A stretch of DNA of 64,000 nt, from contig DBFWPL010000025.1 of assembly GCA_048463395.1 (NCBI GenBank), positions 9,545-73,544 of the forward strand, given 5' to 3'. Position numbers and translations under genes: made by a program. How positions within the stretch are numbered: the stretch's first letter is position 1; every line of letters begins with the position of its first letter. Shown in pieces: positions 1 through 9,661 of this stretch. This DNA is from Alphaproteobacteria bacterium (GTDB taxonomy: Bacteria; Pseudomonadota; Alphaproteobacteria; RF32; CAG-239). The notes below the pieces were generated by a model. That model ran no database searches. It was not told where the DNA came from and worked only from the letters and a program-made list of their open reading frames with translations.

Positions 1-2
1 GG

Positions 3-3000
3 TTGGAGCTTTTAGCTAAAAAACTTTTTGAAAACGGTTTATGGCCAGATGAAAATCCTGAAGGAACCGATAAACTAAAAAGCAAATCTCCTTATAAAAT
101 TAGAACAGATGCTCTAAATGAACGATTAGCAAGCCCTTATTATATCGGACGAGCCATTTTGCATATCGCCAAACACCGTGGAGCAGGTTTTGTTTCAGCT
201 AGTGAAGAAACAGAAGAGGAAATTTTAGAAGAGGGCGAAAAGTCAAAGGCTAAAAAGTCTTCTTATGATATGATGCTGCATCACCTAAAAGAAACAAATT
301 CCAAAACTATCGGCGAATTTTTTTATAATAAAATAATCTCTGGCAAAGGAAATGATAAAACTGTTCGTCAGAAAAAATATGCGATTGAAAAAAATATTGT
401 AGATTACGCCATACCTCGTTACCTTGTTAAAGATGAGTTTAATCAAATTTGGGATAAACAGTCCGAATTTTATCCGCAAATGAAAAAAGAAAATTTGAAG
501 AAAGAAATTTACGATATTTTATTTTATGAACGTCCGGCAGCACCGTATGCCACAGGTAAATGCATTTATTTCAGGGAAGAAGACCGCCTGCTAAAAGCTC
601 ACCCGTTATCGGAAATGCGTCGTATTTATGAAGAAGTCAACAATATCCGCATTTTAAATGGTATGGGCAAAAGAAAATTAACCTTGGAAGAAAGAAATGC
701 TATTGTTAATGAACTTTTGCTAAAAGGCCAAAATGCGGGTAAACAGGCAATCAAAAAATTGCTCAACTTGTCGGCACAATACAAAATTTCTTTGGTTGAT
801 GACAGAGTAATTAAAGCCTATTTATATTCTCGTCCCGAATTTGCAAATAATGAACATCTGCAAAATATGAACGAAGATGAGCTTTCATCTTTTATTGAGT
901 TTTTGGCAGAACCAAAAATGACGAAGGATAAAAATGCCCGTTTATACAATGAAGATGCGTTAATCGAGTATCTTAAGCCAATTCTGAAAATTGATGACGA
1001 AAAAGAAATCGGCAACCTTCTAACCAAACTGCCCAAAGGGCGGGGAATGTTAGGTATAAGTGCCACAAAAATTATTCTCGGAAAATTAAAAGAAGATGTA
1101 GTAACACATCGTGAAATTACCGACAAATTAGCTGAAACAGATAAACGATTTATGGCAGAGGAAGAAATCGCCCGCCAAAATCAGGGAAAATGTTTTCAAC
1201 TTCCTTATTATGGGGAAATTTTACAAACAGATACGGCTCCGCTTCCGCCGTTAATGATAAATAACAACAAAAGCCTTAACCCTGATGAGATAAAATGGGG
1301 TAAAATCGCCAATCCTGCCGTGCATATGATTCTCAATCAAATTCGTTTAGTTGTTAATGAAATTATCAAAATTTATGGTAAGCCTTATGACATCAATATT
1401 GAGCTTGGTCGTGATGTCGGTATGTCAACAAAGAAGAAAAAAGAATTTGAAAACCGACAAAAACAAAATGAAAAACTTAATGAAGAGGCTAAAAACCATT
1501 TAAAAGAACATAAAATTGCCATAAACAGTAAAAATATTTTAAAATACAAATTAGCCAAAGAGCAAGGGTGGAAAGATGCCTACAACCCGACACAAAATAT
1601 TTCTTCTGTATTTACGGGTATGGAAATTGAACATATTATTCCCCAGGCTAAAGGCGGAACAGATACATATAACAACCTCTGTTTAGTTAATCGCAATGAC
1701 AACTTAAACAAAGGCGACCGATATGCTTATGAATATTTTGAAGAAACAAAAACCCCTGAAGAAATCAGAGAAATTTTAAAAAATGCCCGTTCTCGTACCC
1801 CAGATAAATCTTGGCGGTTTGAAGCTGATGCTCGTGAAAAATATGAAGAAAGTGGTGATAAAGAAGAAAGCACCCGTTATCTGACGGATACCCGCTATGT
1901 TGCAAAAATGGCACAGCGATATTTGCGGGCTGTTGTCGATTGCTCTGATTGTGACGAAGTTATGCAAAATCGCATTTTGGCGGTCAAAGGCGGACAAACG
2001 GCCAAATTACGTCAACGTTGGAATTTACTTGGTTTAGAATATGATTTAATGGGACTTGATATTCCAAGATACTTTAAACTAAGTGAAGAACGCGTAAACC
2101 CATATACCGGTGAAGTATTTGATAAGGTTAAAAATAAAGAATGGCAACCCAAACCACGTATTGATCATAGACATCATGCTATGGATGCTATAACGGTTGC
2201 TTGTGCAAACCGTGGATTGATTCAAAAAATGGCAGAAGAAAATGATATTAACAAAATTCATTATCCGTTGCCTTTAACTTCTGTCGAATCTGTCGGAGAG
2301 TTTCGTCGCAAAGTTATCGACGTTCTAAAAAACGTCAAAGTTTCGCACAAGCCTAATCATAGTAAAGCAGGACAATTCCACAAAGAAACAGGTAGAACCG
2401 TTTTGTGTCAAAACCCTGATGACCCGAATTCTTTAATCACTGTTTATTCTCGCAAAATTTTACAAGTGGTAAAATCGGCTAAAGATTTAACGAAATTGCT
2501 TATTCCCAAAACAATTAAAAATGAATGGCACGAGGATATTGCAGAACATAAAGCTAAACAGGCTAAGTTAGTACAAGATTTTGAACTTTATATGAATACA
2601 GCGGAACAAATTTTAATTGCCGAAAATGAGCAAGGCATGGCCGAGGGTAAAAAGGAAATCAAAATTACCGAGGGAAGAATTTTGTTAAAAGCATTCCGCA
2701 TTATCCAAGATAAAGGCTTATGGAAAGGCGATAAATTTAGATGTTATTCCAACAGCTCATCTATGATAAATATTCCTAAACATGGTGTCGCTTATGAGGC
2801 TCAAAACAACCACTGTGTAGATTTTTATAATAAAGATGGCAAAGTTGGCTGGGAAGTCATTAAGCGATTTGATGCAAACCAAGCAGACTTTGAACCCCAA
2901 TGGAAAAAAGAGGGCGGAAAAATTATTTGGTCTGTTCAACAAGGTGATATTTTAGAACTTGATACACCTGATGAATGGAAACAATATACTGACAAAGAAA

Positions 3001-3239
3001 GATGTTTGGCAAAAGTAAAGAAGTTTAGCGATGGTGCTGTTACTATTGATTTTGTTACCGATGCCCGTATGACTTCGCCCAAAGATAAAAATTTGCAATA
3101 TATGTTTGTTGATAGTCTTGTAAATAGAGGATTAAGTTATTTTACAAATAACAAAGCACGCAAAGTTGAATTGACGCCATTCGGTAAAATCAAAAAGAAA
3201 CATAAGGTTCTATGGAATGGCACGAAGACAACGGCTTGA
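3..3239 (+). CDS. cas9: CRISPR-associated endonuclease Cas9, type II-C-like; N-terminus lies off-window (1078 aa fragment)
   Basis: The ORF translation carries an arginine-rich/bridge-helix-like motif (LHIAKHRG). It has an HNH motif (IEHIIPQAKGG...NNLCLV...NLNKGDRYAYEYF) that closely resembles the Neisseria meningitidis Cas9 motif NKGNQTPYEYF. A RuvC-III motif (DHRHHAMDAITVACA) is present, and the basic C-terminal tail resembles that of NmeCas9. Aligning against NmeCas9 suggests roughly 95 or more N-terminal residues are missing upstream of position 1. Confidence 0.93.
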   Translation: MELLAKKLFENGLWPDENPEGTDKLKSKSPYKIRTDALNERLASPYYIGRAILHIAKHRGAGFVSASEETEEEILEEGEKSKAKKSSYDMMLHHLKETNSKTIGEFFYNKIISGKGNDKTVRQKKYAIEKNIVDYAIPRYLVKDEFNQIWDKQSEFYPQMKKENLKKEIYDILFYERPAAPYATGKCIYFREEDRLLKAHPLSEMRRIYEEVNNIRILNGMGKRKLTLEERNAIVNELLLKGQNAGKQAIKKLLNLSAQYKISLVDDRVIKAYLYSRPEFANNEHLQNMNEDELSSFIEFLAEPKMTKDKNARLYNEDALIEYLKPILKIDDEKEIGNLLTKLPKGRGMLGISATKIILGKLKEDVVTHREITDKLAETDKRFMAEEEIARQNQGKCFQLPYYGEILQTDTAPLPPLMINNNKSLNPDEIKWGKIANPAVHMILNQIRLVVNEIIKIYGKPYDINIELGRDVGMSTKKKKEFENRQKQNEKLNEEAKNHLKEHKIAINSKNILKYKLAKEQGWKDAYNPTQNISSVFTGMEIEHIIPQAKGGTDTYNNLCLVNRNDNLNKGDRYAYEYFEETKTPEEIREILKNARSRTPDKSWRFEADAREKYEESGDKEESTRYLTDTRYVAKMAQRYLRAVVDCSDCDEVMQNRILAVKGGQTAKLRQRWNLLGLEYDLMGLDIPRYFKLSEERVNPYTGEVFDKVKNKEWQPKPRIDHRHHAMDAITVACANRGLIQKMAEENDINKIHYPLPLTSVESVGEFRRKVIDVLKNVKVSHKPNHSKAGQFHKETGRTVLCQNPDDPNSLITVYSRKILQVVKSAKDLTKLLIPKTIKNEWHEDIAEHKAKQAKLVQDFELYMNTAEQILIAENEQGMAEGKKEIKITEGRILLKAFRIIQDKGLWKGDKFRCYSNSSSMINIPKHGVAYEAQNNHCVDFYNKDGKVGWEVIKRFDANQADFEPQWKKEGGKIIWSVQQGDILELDTPDEWKQYTDKERCLAKVKKFSDGAVTIDFVTDARMTSPKDKNLQYMFVDSLVNRGLSYFTNNKARKVELTPFGKIKKKHKVLWNGTKTTA

Positions 3240-3258
3240 AACCCTGACAGGATGGTCA

Positions 3259-3579
3259 ATGATGTGGATAATCTGTATGTTTGACATTCCAGTCAGAACC
3301 AGAACGGAAATGCGTAAAGCGACACGTTTTCGTAATTTGCTCTTAGATGAAGGTTTTATGATGAAGCAGTTTTCTGTTTATATAAAACCGGTGAAGAGTT
3401 TATCTGTAGGGCAAACGACAACCAAGAAGTTGTCAAAATTTATTCCGGATAATTCTTCGGTTTCTTTTCTTTATGTTACGGATAAACAATACCTAATGAC
3501 GGAGAATTATTTAGGGCAAAATTATGAAGAAAATGAGGAAGAGAATCGTGAAAAAAACGGTCAACTGCTGTTATTTTAA
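3259..3579 (+). CDS. cas2: CRISPR-associated endoribonuclease Cas2 (type II family)
   Basis: The tool ORF is 3217..3579. The translation (MMWIICMFDIPVRTRTEMRKATRFRNLLLDEGFMMKQFSVYIKPV...FLYVTDKQYLMTENYLG) aligns with type II Cas2 sequences of the form MRMILMFDMPTDT...[21 protein letters not shown]. I prefer the in-frame ATG at 3259 because it is preceded by AGGATGG. The upstream ATG at 3217 would overlap the end of cas9 by 23 nt. Confidence 0.85.
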   Translation: MMWIICMFDIPVRTRTEMRKATRFRNLLLDEGFMMKQFSVYIKPVKSLSVGQTTTKKLSKFIPDNSSVSFLYVTDKQYLMTENYLGQNYEENEEENREKNGQLLLF

Positions 3580-3606
3580 GAGATAATCTTGCTTGTTTTT
3601 TTATAG

Positions 3607-3647
3607 AAAAAGCCTTGAATTTGTTTTTATTTCAAGGCTTTATGCTA
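3607..3647. terminator. Bidirectional intrinsic terminator between cas2 and the CRISPR array
   Basis: An 11-bp perfect stem (AAAGCCTTGAA at 3609-3619 pairing with TTCAAGGCTTT at 3631-3641) encloses an 11-nt loop. It is flanked by an A-run on the left and T residues on the right. On the minus strand the stem is followed by UUUUUCU, so it is the stronger terminator for transcripts leaving the array leftwards. Confidence 0.55.
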
Positions 3648-3653
3648 ATACAT

Positions 3654-4547
3654 AGCATATCAGAGATTAATTAGACGGTCAATTATAACGAAGTCTTTTC
3701 GTATATCCATTGGAAGATTAGCATATCAGAGATTAATTAGACGGTCAATTATAACTCTTCACATGACAGATTAAAAACCAAAGCAAGCATATCAGAGATT
3801 AATTAGACGGTCAATTATAACCCATGTTGCGTACTAGGAAAAGACCTCTGCAGCATATCAGAGATTAATTAGACGGTCAATTATAACGATTCTTGTTTTT
3901 TAAGCTGAGATAATATAAGCATATCAGAGATTAATTAGACGGTCAATTATAACATACCTGATTATTATGTTGAAAAATACAAAAGCATATCAGAGATTAA
4001 TTAGACGGTCAATTATAACGCGGCTTTTCATCACCAGTTTATATCGATGAGCATATCAGAGATTAATTAGACGGTCAATTATAACGTTATGAGGGCATAA
4101 AAAAACATTCAGAATAGCATATCAGAGATTAATTAGACGGTCAATTATAACTATTAGTGGTATACGTCGTCGTTTAACTCCAGCATATCAGAGATTAATT
4201 AGACGGTCAATTATAACTGTTTTAACGAAGAACCATCAGTCATCATAAGCATATCAGAGATTAATTAGACGGTCAATTATAACACTTAAAGCGGATATTA
4301 CTTCTCAACTTCAAGCATATCAGAGATTAATTAGACGGTCAATTATAACATGAAGAGCCGTGTATTATTTTAGGTATTAAGCATATCAGAGATTAATTAG
4401 ACGGTCAATTATAACGTAAATGTAAATATTGGCCTTACGGTGACGAGCATATCAGAGATTAATTAGACGGTCAATTATAACCGGGAGAACAGGGTTCTTT
4501 GCCTGATGCTCAGCTTATCAGAGATTAATTAAGAAATTATATAATTT
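3654..4547. CRISPR. CRISPR array with 13 complete 36-bp repeats, 13 spacers of 30 bp, and one truncated or degenerate terminal repeat
   Basis: The repeat, written on the + strand, is AGCATATCAGAGATTAATTAGACGGTCAATTATAAC. It recurs with exact 66-bp periodicity starting at 3654, 3720, 3786 and so on up to 4446. The spacers are all unique 30-mers. A degenerate copy, AGCTTATCAGAGATTAATTAAG, sits at 4512-4533. The reverse complement of the repeat begins GTTATAATTGACC, which matches the usual GTT start of type II repeats in transcript orientation. That argues the crRNAs are read from the minus strand, right to left and co-directional with cas1. Confidence 0.95.
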
Positions 4548-5463
4548 CCGGATATTTTAAAGCAACCTTTTTTGTTTCGAAACTATCAACTAAGCTGCTT
4601 ATGAAGTTATAAATTCCATCATTTAATGAAACGCAGCCTTTAGTTGTTTTTACTGGATATGTTATAATTTTTGTCAGATTTCTTTTAAGTTCCGGTGTTA
4701 ATTCTATATGGTCAATATTTACCATTTTGTTTAATTCTTCAAAGACAATTTTATCTGCGATTGCTCGAAAAGGTTCAATCATATCATCGACAAGGGGTAA
4801 TGAGTTTGATTTTGTGCAATGTTTTAGTCCCAAATATGGTAATAATCCGTTTCCGGAAATTGCTCTGGCGACCATAGCTCGTAAGACAATATATGAGTAG
4901 TTTAGCATAATATTTATATCATCATTAAGGCGGTCTCTTATAAATTTTTTGCCAAAGAGTGATTTGAAGTATATGGCTGCGGCAACACCTTCATTATTTT
5001 GAGCGTCATTACTCAATGTTTCTTTTGCCAGATTTTTTAATCTTTCAATGTTTGTATTTTCAGGGAAAAAATGTTCTAATATTTTAGCTTGGTTTAAAAT
5101 TTTGTTTTGAACGATGCTTTTCCATAGATTTTTTTGTAGTGGTTTGGAGCAGTTTATTTGCTGCTTTATTCTGGGAGCCATGAGCCAATGTCCTGTATAG
5201 GGAAGAGCTATTGTTTCAGGAAGATAATTTTTGCCGCAAAAGATAATGTTTCCGCCTTGTCGGCTGACAGCATTGATGATGTTTTTGGAAACGGTGATGT
5301 TGTTGGCGGATAACACCAAGGCCAGGATGTTATCAAGAGGGATTTCTTGTTTGAGTTTGTTGTCTTTATTTTCGATGTTTAAAAAGCCTCTGTGTAAAGA
5401 TAGAGAAAACCCATCATTCATGACTTCAATTATTTGTTTATCCATATGAAAACTTTCTTTCAA
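4537..5463 (-). CDS. cas1: CRISPR-associated endonuclease Cas1 (type II)
   Basis: The 308-aa ORF carries the conserved Cas1 catalytic region (LGLKH ... DDMIEPFRAIAD) and a length typical of Cas1. Its stop codon lies 4 nt from the degenerate terminal repeat. Confidence 0.9.
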   Translation of the reverse strand: MKESFHMDKQIIEVMNDGFSLSLHRGFLNIENKDNKLKQEIPLDNILALVLSANNITVSKNIINAVSRQGGNIIFCGKNYLPETIALPYTGHWLMAPRIKQQINCSKPLQKNLWKSIVQNKILNQAKILEHFFPENTNIERLKNLAKETLSNDAQNNEGVAAAIYFKSLFGKKFIRDRLNDDINIMLNYSYIVLRAMVARAISGNGLLPYLGLKHCTKSNSLPLVDDMIEPFRAIADKIVFEELNKMVNIDHIELTPELKRNLTKIITYPVKTTKGCVSLNDGIYNFISSLVDSFETKKVALKYPEII

Positions 5464-5694
5464 GATTTTTAATTATTATATCTTATCAGGCAGATAAGTC
5501 AACAAGGGGAACCTTTCGGAAATCTTAGTTTTGGGGAAGGAAGAGTTTTTTATACAGGGAGAAAATGGCTGGGATTCTAGAAAAAGTAATGTTATTCTTT
5601 GGAGAGAGAGGAAATTGTTTTTTATTGAGTAATAAAAAAACAGATATTTTTCAATACCTGTTTTTTTATTGTTTTTGTTATTTAAAACGTCGGC

Positions 5695-6483
5695 TTATTT
5701 AATTTCTTCTTCCGGCATGATAATTTCATTTTCAACAATGGCCGGAGTGGTTCCAACCAGGTTAGCCGGCTGAGTAAGGACGGTTGTTGAAGCAGGAGTC
5801 GTGGTCGTTACGACAACCGGAGCAGCAGGTACTGTTGCTGTTGTTTCAATAACGTTGGCCGGTTGGGCAATAACTCTTGTGCTTACGATTTGAGCTCCTG
5901 TAACCGGTTGTTTTTCATAGCTGACAGCCTGATGTGTTTCCGGTTTGTAAACTGTTGTATAAGTTGTTTTCTTATAGGTAACTTCTACCGGTTCTTTAAC
6001 TTCTTTTACAGTTGACTGACAGCCGGAAGCTGTAGCATTGGCTGTTGTATAGTTTGCACAAGGAACAACATTAACAACTCTTTGTGCCGGAGCGGCTGTT
6101 TTGACGATAACCGGTTCAATAACAGGCTGAGGAGCTGCTTTTTCCTGAGAAGCATTACAAGGAGCAGAATCTAAAATTGAGCCATTGTAGTTGCTTCTGC
6201 AAGGAGAAGAAGCAAGGAGAGTTGTGTTTGTTTCAGGTTTTGGAGCCTGATAAGCGTTTTGAACGATAACCGGCCGGCGGGCTTTTACGACTCTGACCTG
6301 TTGACCGTTTTGAGTGTAATAAGTCTGTGAGGTGTATCTTCTGGATAAGCAGTTACCGTTTTCATCATAGTAATTGCATCCTTGGTCATCATAACCTCTG
6401 TAAACTTCTTGTGTGTGGGTAGTGCAAGCCGCTAATAAAGCGATTGCTGATAAAATGAGTGTTTTTTTCATCAAAGTTCTCAC
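5695..6483 (-). CDS. Putative lipoprotein, Thr/Val/Pro-rich, function unknown
   Basis: The protein has a signal peptide with an LLAAC lipobox. Its body is low-complexity and rich in T, V and P, with scattered cysteines. Confidence 0.6.
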   Translation of the reverse strand: MRTLMKKTLILSAIALLAACTTHTQEVYRGYDDQGCNYYDENGNCLSRRYTSQTYYTQNGQQVRVVKARRPVIVQNAYQAPKPETNTTLLASSPCRSNYNGSILDSAPCNASQEKAAPQPVIEPVIVKTAAPAQRVVNVVPCANYTTANATASGCQSTVKEVKEPVEVTYKKTTYTTVYKPETHQAVSYEKQPVTGAQIVSTRVIAQPANVIETTATVPAAPVVVTTTTPASTTVLTQPANLVGTTPAIVENEIIMPEEEIK

Positions 6484-6577
6484 CTTTAAAAATGGTTAAC
6501 AAAACATTAATTTTGTGTCCAATATAATGTTTTTTTTAAATTTGTCAATTTCTCATTAAAAAAATTTTTATTTTTTT

Positions 6578-8911: not shown

Positions 8912-9661
8912 TTATTTTTTATTAAAACTGATACCGCGTGTGATGATACCAATCATGATACCGAACATCAGGTAACTGGTCAGGCATTCAAACGCGACAA
9001 TGATTCTGGCAATGACGGTGTGAGGGACAATATCTCCGTAACCGACTGTGGTCATGGTAATGATACTGAAATACAAAGCGTCAATGATTCCCGCAACGCC
9101 GTCACCAAAGTCAAAAGCCTGAGGAATTTTGAAATTGTTGTGAATAGTGTTGACCGAAAGGTTGATAACGGCAAAAGTGATTGTCAGGTTGATAAAAAAG
9201 TTAGCAAATTCTCCGATATCCTGCGGGGTGGCCAGGGTGTCAGGTGTCAGCATGGAGGACAGTTTTGCGGCAAAGTCCCTGACGCTGAGATAAGCGATAT
9301 AAATAATAATCAGACTTATCAAGTAGGTGCTGGCGGGTGCAAAAGTAATGTAAATGCTTAAAAAGCCGGCGATAAAGGCCACGATAGACAAGGCTTTTTT
9401 ATCAGAAACATAATATCTTCGGGTATAATTTTTTCCGGCAAAATAGCGGTTTAAAAAGAGGGAAATCAGAGCTGTGAACAAGCCGTTGTAAACCGGGAGG
9501 ACGACATAAATCAGTTCCGGATCCAAGTTTAGTTTTTTTGCAGGATCGGGATATAAAGATAAAATGCACAGGCTGACAAAAAAGCACAGATTAAAATCTC
9601 GTACGAAAATCTGTCGGATGTTTTGTAAGGATATTTGTATCATAATAAAAGCTCCGTTCAA
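8912..9661 (-). CDS. Potassium channel family protein
   Basis: A K+ selectivity filter (TTVGYGD) sits between transmembrane helices. Confidence 0.75.
   Translation of the reverse strand: MNGAFIMIQISLQNIRQIFVRDFNLCFFVSLCILSLYPDPAKKLNLDPELIYVVLPVYNGLFTALISLFLNRYFAGKNYTRRYYVSDKKALSIVAFIAGFLSIYITFAPASTYLISLIIIYIAYLSVRDFAAKLSSMLTPDTLATPQDIGEFANFFINLTITFAVINLSVNTIHNNFKIPQAFDFGDGVAGIIDALYFSIITMTTVGYGDIVPHTVIARIIVAFECLTSYLMFGIMIGIITRGISFNKK

Follow-up and report, generated by a model that had tools for sequence, protein, structure and literature searches.

A type II-C CRISPR-Cas9 locus with promoter-like repeats and a degenerate extra repeat in an uncultured gut alphaproteobacterium

In CRISPR-Cas systems of type II the tracrRNA is complementary to the repeat, and its anti-repeat is followed by a nexus stem and a terminator at the 3' end. 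The genes csn2 and cas4 mark subtypes II-A and II-B, respectively, while the II-C adaptation module comprises cas1 and cas2 only. In II-A arrays the promoter lies in the leader, and transcription begins at the same end as acquisition. The Neisseria repeat is not known to carry promoter elements other than an extended -10.

In the type II-C system of N. meningitidis, where repeat-embedded promoters are experimentally established, the crRNAs are antisense to cas9, every repeat has an extended -10 element at its 3' end, transcripts start a few nucleotides into the spacer and the acquisition leader lies at the transcriptionally downstream end (Zhang et al. 2013; PMC5965381, PMC12477760). The start falls on the sixth spacer nucleotide according to PMC5965381 and the legend to Extended Data Fig. 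4 of PMC12477760. Acquisition at the transcriptionally last repeat, opposite to the transcription start, is standard for type II-C (PMC12080349, PMC12477760). Feussner et al. 2025 (PMC12080349) surveyed 357 non-redundant type II-C arrays (more than 650 in all) and found the extra (first) repeat mutated in 60% of the 357, mostly in its first 15 nt, with weaker tracrRNA pairing as a result, which was explained as blocking extraneous, spacer-less crRNA. C. jejuni and the surveyed arrays have a promoter per repeat, acquisition at the last repeat and a mutated first repeat, and the C. jejuni array is insulated by an upstream terminator (Dugar 2013; PMC12080349).

The locus described here is an ordinary Neisseria-type (type II-C) system whose host is an uncultured gut alphaproteobacterium. 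It shares with N. meningitidis the 36-nt repeats, the 30-nt spacers and the closest solved Cas9 structures and, on the evidence below, probably also the transcriptional arrangement just outlined, but its tracrRNA is found upstream of cas9, its cas1 reads directly into the array and its repeat has a -35-like TTGACC. The features common to C. jejuni and the survey are probably present too, although no insulating terminator is present and cas1 overlaps the extra repeat; among the published extra-repeat strategies, mutation is the one evident in this locus (PMC12080349). With the II-A system of S. pyogenes it has in common a tracrRNA-dependent Cas9 and a degenerate oldest repeat, but there a leader promoter puts transcription and acquisition at the same end, whereas here they appear to lie at opposite ends. 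The departures from textbook II-C are thus the -35-like element and the displaced, inverted cas1 overlapping the extra repeat, and the current understanding of type II-C systems is unchanged by the locus.

Layout and gene content of the locus

The window, by which we mean the whole 64,000-nt stretch of DNA analysed, holds the locus at positions 1-5463 in the order tracrRNA(-), cas9(+), cas2(+), array, cas1(-), with the tracrRNA preceding the window start (Table 1). The start of cas9 also lies before the window, by 186 nt, and the complete gene (1141 aa) was found at 6598-10023 of L001, an identical contig (0 mismatches in 13,579 overlapping bases) that reaches 6.8 kb further upstream. When solved structures were searched with the window Cas9, N. 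meningitidis entries (for example 6JDQ and 6KC8) were the closest (E 4.5e-45) and other II-C Cas9s, including that of C. jejuni (5X2G), ranked after them. These matches and TIGR01865 place the protein in the II-C (Nme/Cje-like) lineage.

Table 1. Features of the locus, in window coordinates unless L001 is named.
Feature	Position	Strand	Remarks
tracrRNA	L001 ~6400-6511, ~280-390 nt before window start	- (opposite cas9)	anti-repeat, nexus, terminator
cas9	1-3239 (ORF 3-3239)	+	TIGR01865 Cas9, E 9e-122; ~62 N-terminal codons absent
cas2	3217-3579	+	120 aa; TIGR01573, E 1.8e-16; overlaps cas9 end
Leader-like segment	3580-3653		cas2-array gap; downstream of array by the predicted crRNA transcription
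Leader hairpin	3609-3641	-	AAAGCCTTGAA / TTCAAGGCTTT, then TTTTTCTAT on minus strand only
CRISPR array	3654-4481	- (crRNA sense)	13 identical 36-nt repeats, 12 internal 30-nt spacers, period 66
Repeat-embedded promoter-like element (example)	4446-4474	-	recurs every 66 nt down to 3654-3682
Spacer, most likely the oldest	4482-4511	-	between last intact repeat and degenerate extra repeat
Degenerate extra repeat	4512-4547	-	first in predicted transcription direction; 4512-4531 kept (repeat positions 17-36)
cas1	4537-5463	-	308 aa; TIGR03639 type II Cas1, E 8e-73; inverted relative to cas9-cas2
Promoter-like site upstream of cas1	5475-5502	-	TTGACT-16-TATAAT, 11/12, consensus match only

The adaptation genes found in the window and L001 were cas1 and cas2, and none of the other called genes with Pfam matches in the 20-kb L001 locus matched Csn2 or Cas4. 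In place of the canonical cas9-cas1-cas2-array order, as seen in N. meningitidis, we found cas9-cas2-array-cas1(inverted), an architectural variant that does not decide the subtype. The gene cas1 is co-directional with the minus-strand reading of the array and is transcribed toward it without an intervening terminator; it ends, at the stop codon 4539-4537, within the stretch that the degenerate repeat would occupy if complete.

A scan of species-representative genomes based on Cas9 alignment yielded 80 loci, about 55 of which form one clade of uncultured gut Alphaproteobacteria with 54-94% Cas9 identity. The placement of cas1 beyond the array is common to about 40 related loci. In six others (L005, L020, L022, L049, L050 and L052) cas1 lies upstream of the tracrRNA on the cas9 strand, and the extra repeat is intact in several of these; the two layouts would be linked by one inversion, that of the tracrRNA-cas9-cas2-array block with respect to cas1.

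Compared with its relatives L002, L003, L006 and L058, the window has a Cas1 far more diverged than its neighbours: against L002, Cas9 and Cas2 are each 94% identical and Cas1 only 72%. The most similar Cas1 proteins (L008, 78%; L009, 77%) accompany less similar Cas9s (80% and 71%). Since Cas1 identity is out of step with that of Cas9 and Cas2, the sequences suggest that the cas1 and cas9-cas2 modules have recombined, perhaps across the array.

Before the window start, L001 1-6392 carries genes for a tyrosine integrase, an HTH_17 protein, a Cap4-type nuclease and a GIY-YIG protein, so that the CRISPR locus adjoins what looks like an integrated element. Around L001 5800-5850 the sequence is like the 3' half of a tRNA, and ARAGORN called no complete tRNA there. 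On the other side, cas1 is adjoined by a minus-strand ORF (5695-6483, 262 aa) with a signal-peptide/lipoprotein-like N-terminus, Thr/Val/Pro-rich repeats and no NCBIfam match.

The tracrRNA and the strand of the crRNAs

The 13 identical repeats read AGCATATCAGAGATTAATTAGACGGTCAATTATAAC on the plus strand. Their reverse complement, as had been described before, begins with GTTATAATTGACC and ends with CTCTGATATGCT, and each minus-strand repeat reads GTTATAATTGACCGTCTAATTAATCTCTGATATGCT; in crRNA sense the repeat is 5'-GUUAUAAUUGACCGUCUAAUUAAUCUCUGAUAUGCU-3'. No anti-repeat was detected within the window. The sole anti-repeat in the 20 kb of L001 is an exact 24-nt match at 6464-6487 (window -320 to -297), 111 nt upstream of the cas9 start. 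On the strand opposite cas9 it forms part of the series UCAGAGAUUAAUUAGACGGUCAAU-ACAUA-UAUAAU-AAGGCUGCAAAUGCCGU...GGGGGCAAUAAAUUGCCCCC-AUUAUUCU, which provides the 24-nt anti-repeat, a 5-nt bulge, an AAGG nexus stem and a terminator hairpin, the parts expected of a II-C tracrRNA. A promoter-like site (TTGACA-18-CATAAT) upstream and a terminator-like site downstream of the anti-repeat are both on this strand; in the cas9 sense no such structure follows before the cas9 start is reached. UAUAAU pairs with bases 1-6 of the repeat and the 24-mer with bases 7-30, the 5-nt bulge lying between, and the predicted duplex (-39.5 kcal/mol) is far more stable than those of shuffled repeats (-8.8 +/- 2.7 kcal/mol). 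Rfam held no family matching the tracrRNA or anything in the array.

A tracrRNA with the same place and orientation was present in nearly all loci of the clade. In an alignment of 34 tracrRNAs, compensatory double changes were seen at 9 of the 14 predicted pairs, and all nine belong to the nexus and terminator stems, which account for 10 of the pairs. Across 25 distinct combinations of repeat and anti-repeat we counted 38 double compensated changes, 18 wobble changes and 8 breaks, and repeats formed 23.7 of 24 pairs with their own anti-repeat versus 22.0 of 24 with swapped partners.

From the orientation of the tracrRNA, the covariation of its stems and the covariation of repeat and anti-repeat we infer that the crRNAs are made from the minus strand. 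The array would accordingly be transcribed opposite to cas9, as in other II-C systems, and co-directionally with cas1, which is the direction that the preliminary description had favoured. Its caveat that the sequence cannot settle the orientation holds only inside the window, as the tracrRNA that settles it lies outside. Sequence is enough to orient a type II array once its tracrRNA has been located, which is of use chiefly for annotation.

The degenerate copy at 4512 was itself considered as a tracrRNA anti-repeat and rejected: neither strand continues into a nexus or terminator, and a proper tracrRNA lies upstream of cas9.

Promoter-like elements and the degenerate extra repeat

A consensus scan found TTGACC-17-TATGCT, with a TG extension, in 13 of 13 minus-strand repeats (9/12 consensus matches). 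In the example of Table 1 the -35-like TTGACC occupies 4474-4469 and is separated by 17 nt from the extended -10 element TGaTATGCT (4454-4446). The extended -10-like repeat end had been noticed before and recurs in all 13 copies; the TTGACC had been missed, and with it the element is a fuller promoter match. The hexamer itself agrees with TATAAT at only 4/6 positions, or 3/6 in the TAAGCT of the extra repeat.

To judge the element by its conservation we compared 27 distinct repeats of the clade. Their final hexamer follows the pattern TAnnnT (100, 100, 59, 59, 52 and 93%): T31 and A32 are invariant, positions 33-35 vary with T-A-A in the majority and T36 is kept in 93%, while the TG two bases upstream is present in 96%. 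These last six bases are outside the tracrRNA pairing and face a run of U. TAnnnT with an upstream TG is, as a conservation pattern, the profile of a -10 box with its extension, which pairing cannot explain; TGnTAnnnT at the repeat end matches what is expected of repeat-embedded promoters of the Nme/Cje type, an extended -10 element conserved independently of tracrRNA pairing. The TTGAC is located in the tracrRNA-paired region, where the repeats never depart from it whereas its partner drifts 11 times uncompensated. The DNA or the crRNA strand may accordingly be under some further constraint, which could equally come from Cas9 or the Cas1-Cas2 integrase and not from RNA polymerase. Distant type II-C loci of Treponema (~30% Cas9 identity), read in the same orientation, carry TTGAC(C/A/T) 16 nt ahead of a terminal TATAAT. 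Judged by these patterns, a promoter inside every repeat probably makes the crRNAs, and by analogy with N. meningitidis (PMC12477760) the start is predicted at about nucleotides 6-8 of the downstream spacer.

The window repeat start GTTATAAT also creates a perfect TATAAT at the spacer-repeat junction, which with two particular spacers reaches a promoter score of 10/12 (sites 3682-3709 and 3946-3973, minus strand). We rejected this junction as a second promoter: most relatives have GTTATAGT instead, and the match is probably incidental.

The extra repeat at 4512 matches the array repeat at 19 of 20 positions in its 3' part and 4 of 16 in its 5' part, where the 3' end of cas1 and a short gap now stand in for positions 1-16. 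The promoter-bearing end is therefore kept, although not exactly as had been stated, since 4515 is T instead of A and turns the minus-strand hexamer TATGCT into TAAGCT. Weaker tracrRNA pairing accompanies the 5' loss: the duplex is predicted at -19.6 kcal/mol versus -39.5 for the intact repeat, and over the first 24 nt, the part expected in a mature crRNA, at -6.0 versus -25.6 kcal/mol. Both traits place the locus in the mutated-extra-repeat class of II-C systems (Feussner 2025), and the degenerate end, previously called unusual, repeats a pattern published for most type II-C arrays (PMC12080349).

TAAGCT is the full-repeat consensus hexamer of the sister lineages L003, L009 and L013, and for this reason it resembles an older allele more than decay. 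In L003 and L037 the extra repeats similarly carry TACGCT, the consensus of L004 and L058, so that terminal repeats seem, from these comparisons, to preserve older repeat alleles.

In related loci 19-20 of the last 20 nt of the extra repeat are preserved, compared with a mean of only 9.9 of the first 16 where cas1 abuts, and its 3' end is nearly intact in about 30 lineages. The breakpoints differ: copies are truncated after 3, 6, 7, 13 or 16 nt, or bear point changes confined to positions 1-7. The half-repeat might be a neutral accident in which a deletion or a recombination event joined cas1, by its 3' end, to the terminal repeat without selection either way, the rest staying intact only through slow point mutation. 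The lost part of the window copy was indeed replaced wholesale, not peppered with substitutions, and is now partly cas1 coding sequence; moreover, positive selection for such mutations cannot be shown (PMC12080349). A neutral origin would, however, have to produce the same asymmetry at different breakpoints in many species-level lineages and to leave 19-20 of 20 kept positions matching even where the array consensus has drifted, and we consider it unlikely.

On the preferred reading the retained end would still serve as a promoter. The TGaTAAGCT of the extra repeat is the only plausible crRNA source for the spacer at 4482-4511. That selection keeps this half, as had been proposed, is reasonable; it is not the sole force, as loss of the 5' half was probably favoured too, or at least tolerated. 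The blocking of extraneous crRNA stands alongside promoter retention.

An alternative for the repeats themselves is that minus-strand crRNAs come mainly from one precursor started at the cas1 promoter and processed with tracrRNA and RNase III, the repeat motifs being by-products of other constraints, namely tracrRNA pairing, Cas9 binding and integrase recognition. It accounts for the strong promoter-like site upstream of cas1 (11/12), for the lack of a terminator between cas1 and the array, for the stop codon inside the extra repeat and for the position of TTGAC in the paired region. Against it, the last six repeat bases keep TA...T and the upstream TG yet do not pair with the tracrRNA, the extra repeat keeps its promoter end in those ~30 lineages although it is part of no crRNA, and L005, L020, L050 and L052 have the same repeat motifs without an upstream cas1. 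We regard a precursor as the main source as improbable, and favour promoters in the repeats.

Read-through from cas1 alone might nevertheless supply crRNAs, given the strong promoter-like site and the absence of a terminator before the array. A more speculative proposal, to which we give little credence, is that in this clade cas1 mRNA and pre-crRNA form a single transcript whose 3' end is set by tracrRNA and RNase III at the first intact repeat, coupling Cas1 expression to tracrRNA and crRNA levels. If true, spacer uptake would be coupled to those levels, and the -35/-10 promoters of each repeat would keep the crRNA supply independent of the cas1 transcript.

Leader, hairpin and the direction of acquisition

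The segment at 3580-3653, described earlier as an AT-rich 74-nt stretch, is the exact gap between the cas2 stop and the array. Its repeat-adjacent bases and its hairpin are conserved in 50 distinct related leaders. The hairpin, also noted before, stood up as a structure when folded against 200 shuffles: it has 11 bp and -13.5 kcal/mol (z = -3.5), and 0 of the 200 folded as well. All 50 leaders form a hairpin in this place (mean -21 kcal/mol), with compensatory changes in the stem (for example GCCTTGAAAT, CACCTTGAAAT and CCCCTGAAAT). Leaders were folded individually, as the RNAalifold consensus was weak, loop indels having misaligned the stems. A simple terminator scan had omitted the window hairpin, whose loop is 11 nt.

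The hairpin is a probable terminator of array transcripts. Since A-rich and T-rich runs flank many of the stems on either side, it could plausibly work in both directions and terminate the cas9-cas2 operon as well. In about 50 loci the core CCTTGAAAT is conserved, the sequence GCCTTGAAAT...ATTTCAAGGC being kept as well as the structure. This conservation exceeds what a plain terminator needs, and the hairpin may therefore be a protein-binding, leader-recognition or integration signal.

The polarity of acquisition was assessed in five contigs (L088-L092) that encode exactly the same Cas9 (P0034) and represent a sister lineage with 73% Cas9 identity, not the strain of the window. L088 and L091 have 19 spacers in common in the same order, and their 7 and 4 unique spacers lie beside cas2 only. 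L089 and L090 have in common only the spacer adjoining the mutated terminal repeat. In related arrays, mutated repeats cluster at the cas1-proximal end. The relatives thus display the II-C polarity, with variable spacers downstream and a mutated repeat and conserved spacers upstream. Because strains with identical Cas9 vary at the cas2 side and agree at the cas1 side, new spacers most likely enter beside cas2, in which case 3580-3653 would be the acquisition leader and the repeat at 4512 the oldest.

Other comparisons bore less on this question. L082-L087 were compatible with either polarity, and spacers shared between species representatives gave no information on it. Searches for a strain-level relative of the window array found none: an exact look-up of Cas2 returned one place, and a single metagenome scan with Cas1 returned three loci of 68-74% identity. 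A search with 861 spacers from all related arrays gave no protospacer match outside arrays in the related loci or the window. The phage collection likewise gave no match to the window array (distant mode) or to the 127-spacer array of L056 (near mode), and an exact-match search of IMG/VR with three window spacers also came back empty. With no protospacer found, the PAM side gives no independent check of orientation.

The remaining alternative, a II-A-like array transcribed on the plus strand from a leader at 3580-3653 with 4512 as its ordinary 3'-degenerate last repeat, rightly identifies the leader and the leader-distal, oldest repeat and explains why the half needed by a plus-strand crRNA of the last spacer is the one left in the degenerate copy, but it is hardly credible given that the nexus, terminator and promoter belonging to the sole anti-repeat are on the strand pairing with minus-strand crRNA while a plus-strand crRNA would need a tracrRNA of opposite sense, that the consensus scan found no plus-strand promoter-like site in 3580-3653, that the plus-strand repeat starts with AGCATATC and not with the GTT typical of type II repeats, and that the hairpin stands between the supposed leader promoter and the array. 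The preliminary description had offered plus- and minus-strand transcription as alternatives. Its plus-strand version stands as to the leader and the leader-distal repeat and fails as to the transcribed strand, and the two readings are halves of one known arrangement.

We hold the type II-C model as a whole, with minus-strand crRNAs, promoters in the repeats, acquisition at the cas2 side and 4512 as the oldest repeat, to be likely. Each spacer would probably be its own transcription unit, driven by the -35 and extended -10 elements of the repeat upstream, with a transcript that starts some 6-8 nt into the spacer and runs into the next repeat. The first 30 nt of that repeat would pair with the tracrRNA (6 bp, 5-nt bulge, 24 bp). 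A long precursor may come in addition from cas1 read-through, and array transcripts would stop at the conserved hairpin. New spacers would enter at the cas2-proximal repeat (3654), beside the 74-nt leader and at the transcriptionally downstream end. The extra repeat would still supply the promoter for the oldest spacer while being without the 16 nt for tracrRNA pairing and Cas9 loading, so that read-through from cas1 could not give a spacer-less crRNA.

In type II-C the acquisition leader is located opposite the transcriptionally upstream end, and a degenerate repeat consequently does not mark the 3' end of the transcript. A clade of about 50 species-level gut genomes probably joins the systems with repeat-embedded promoters, to which it adds a recognizable -35 element and a displaced, inverted cas1.

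Further observations concern single loci of the set. L007 has a solitary, perfect 24-nt repeat core at 9034-9057, in array-repeat sense and about 950 nt upstream of cas9, which stands apart from both array and tracrRNA. The 26 repeats of L090 (8985-11525) span 2.5 kb instead of the expected 1.7 kb, with genes called inside the array, which suggests an insertion. In L092 the array has collapsed to a single mutated terminal repeat (4344-4379) between cas2 and cas1, with no spacers.
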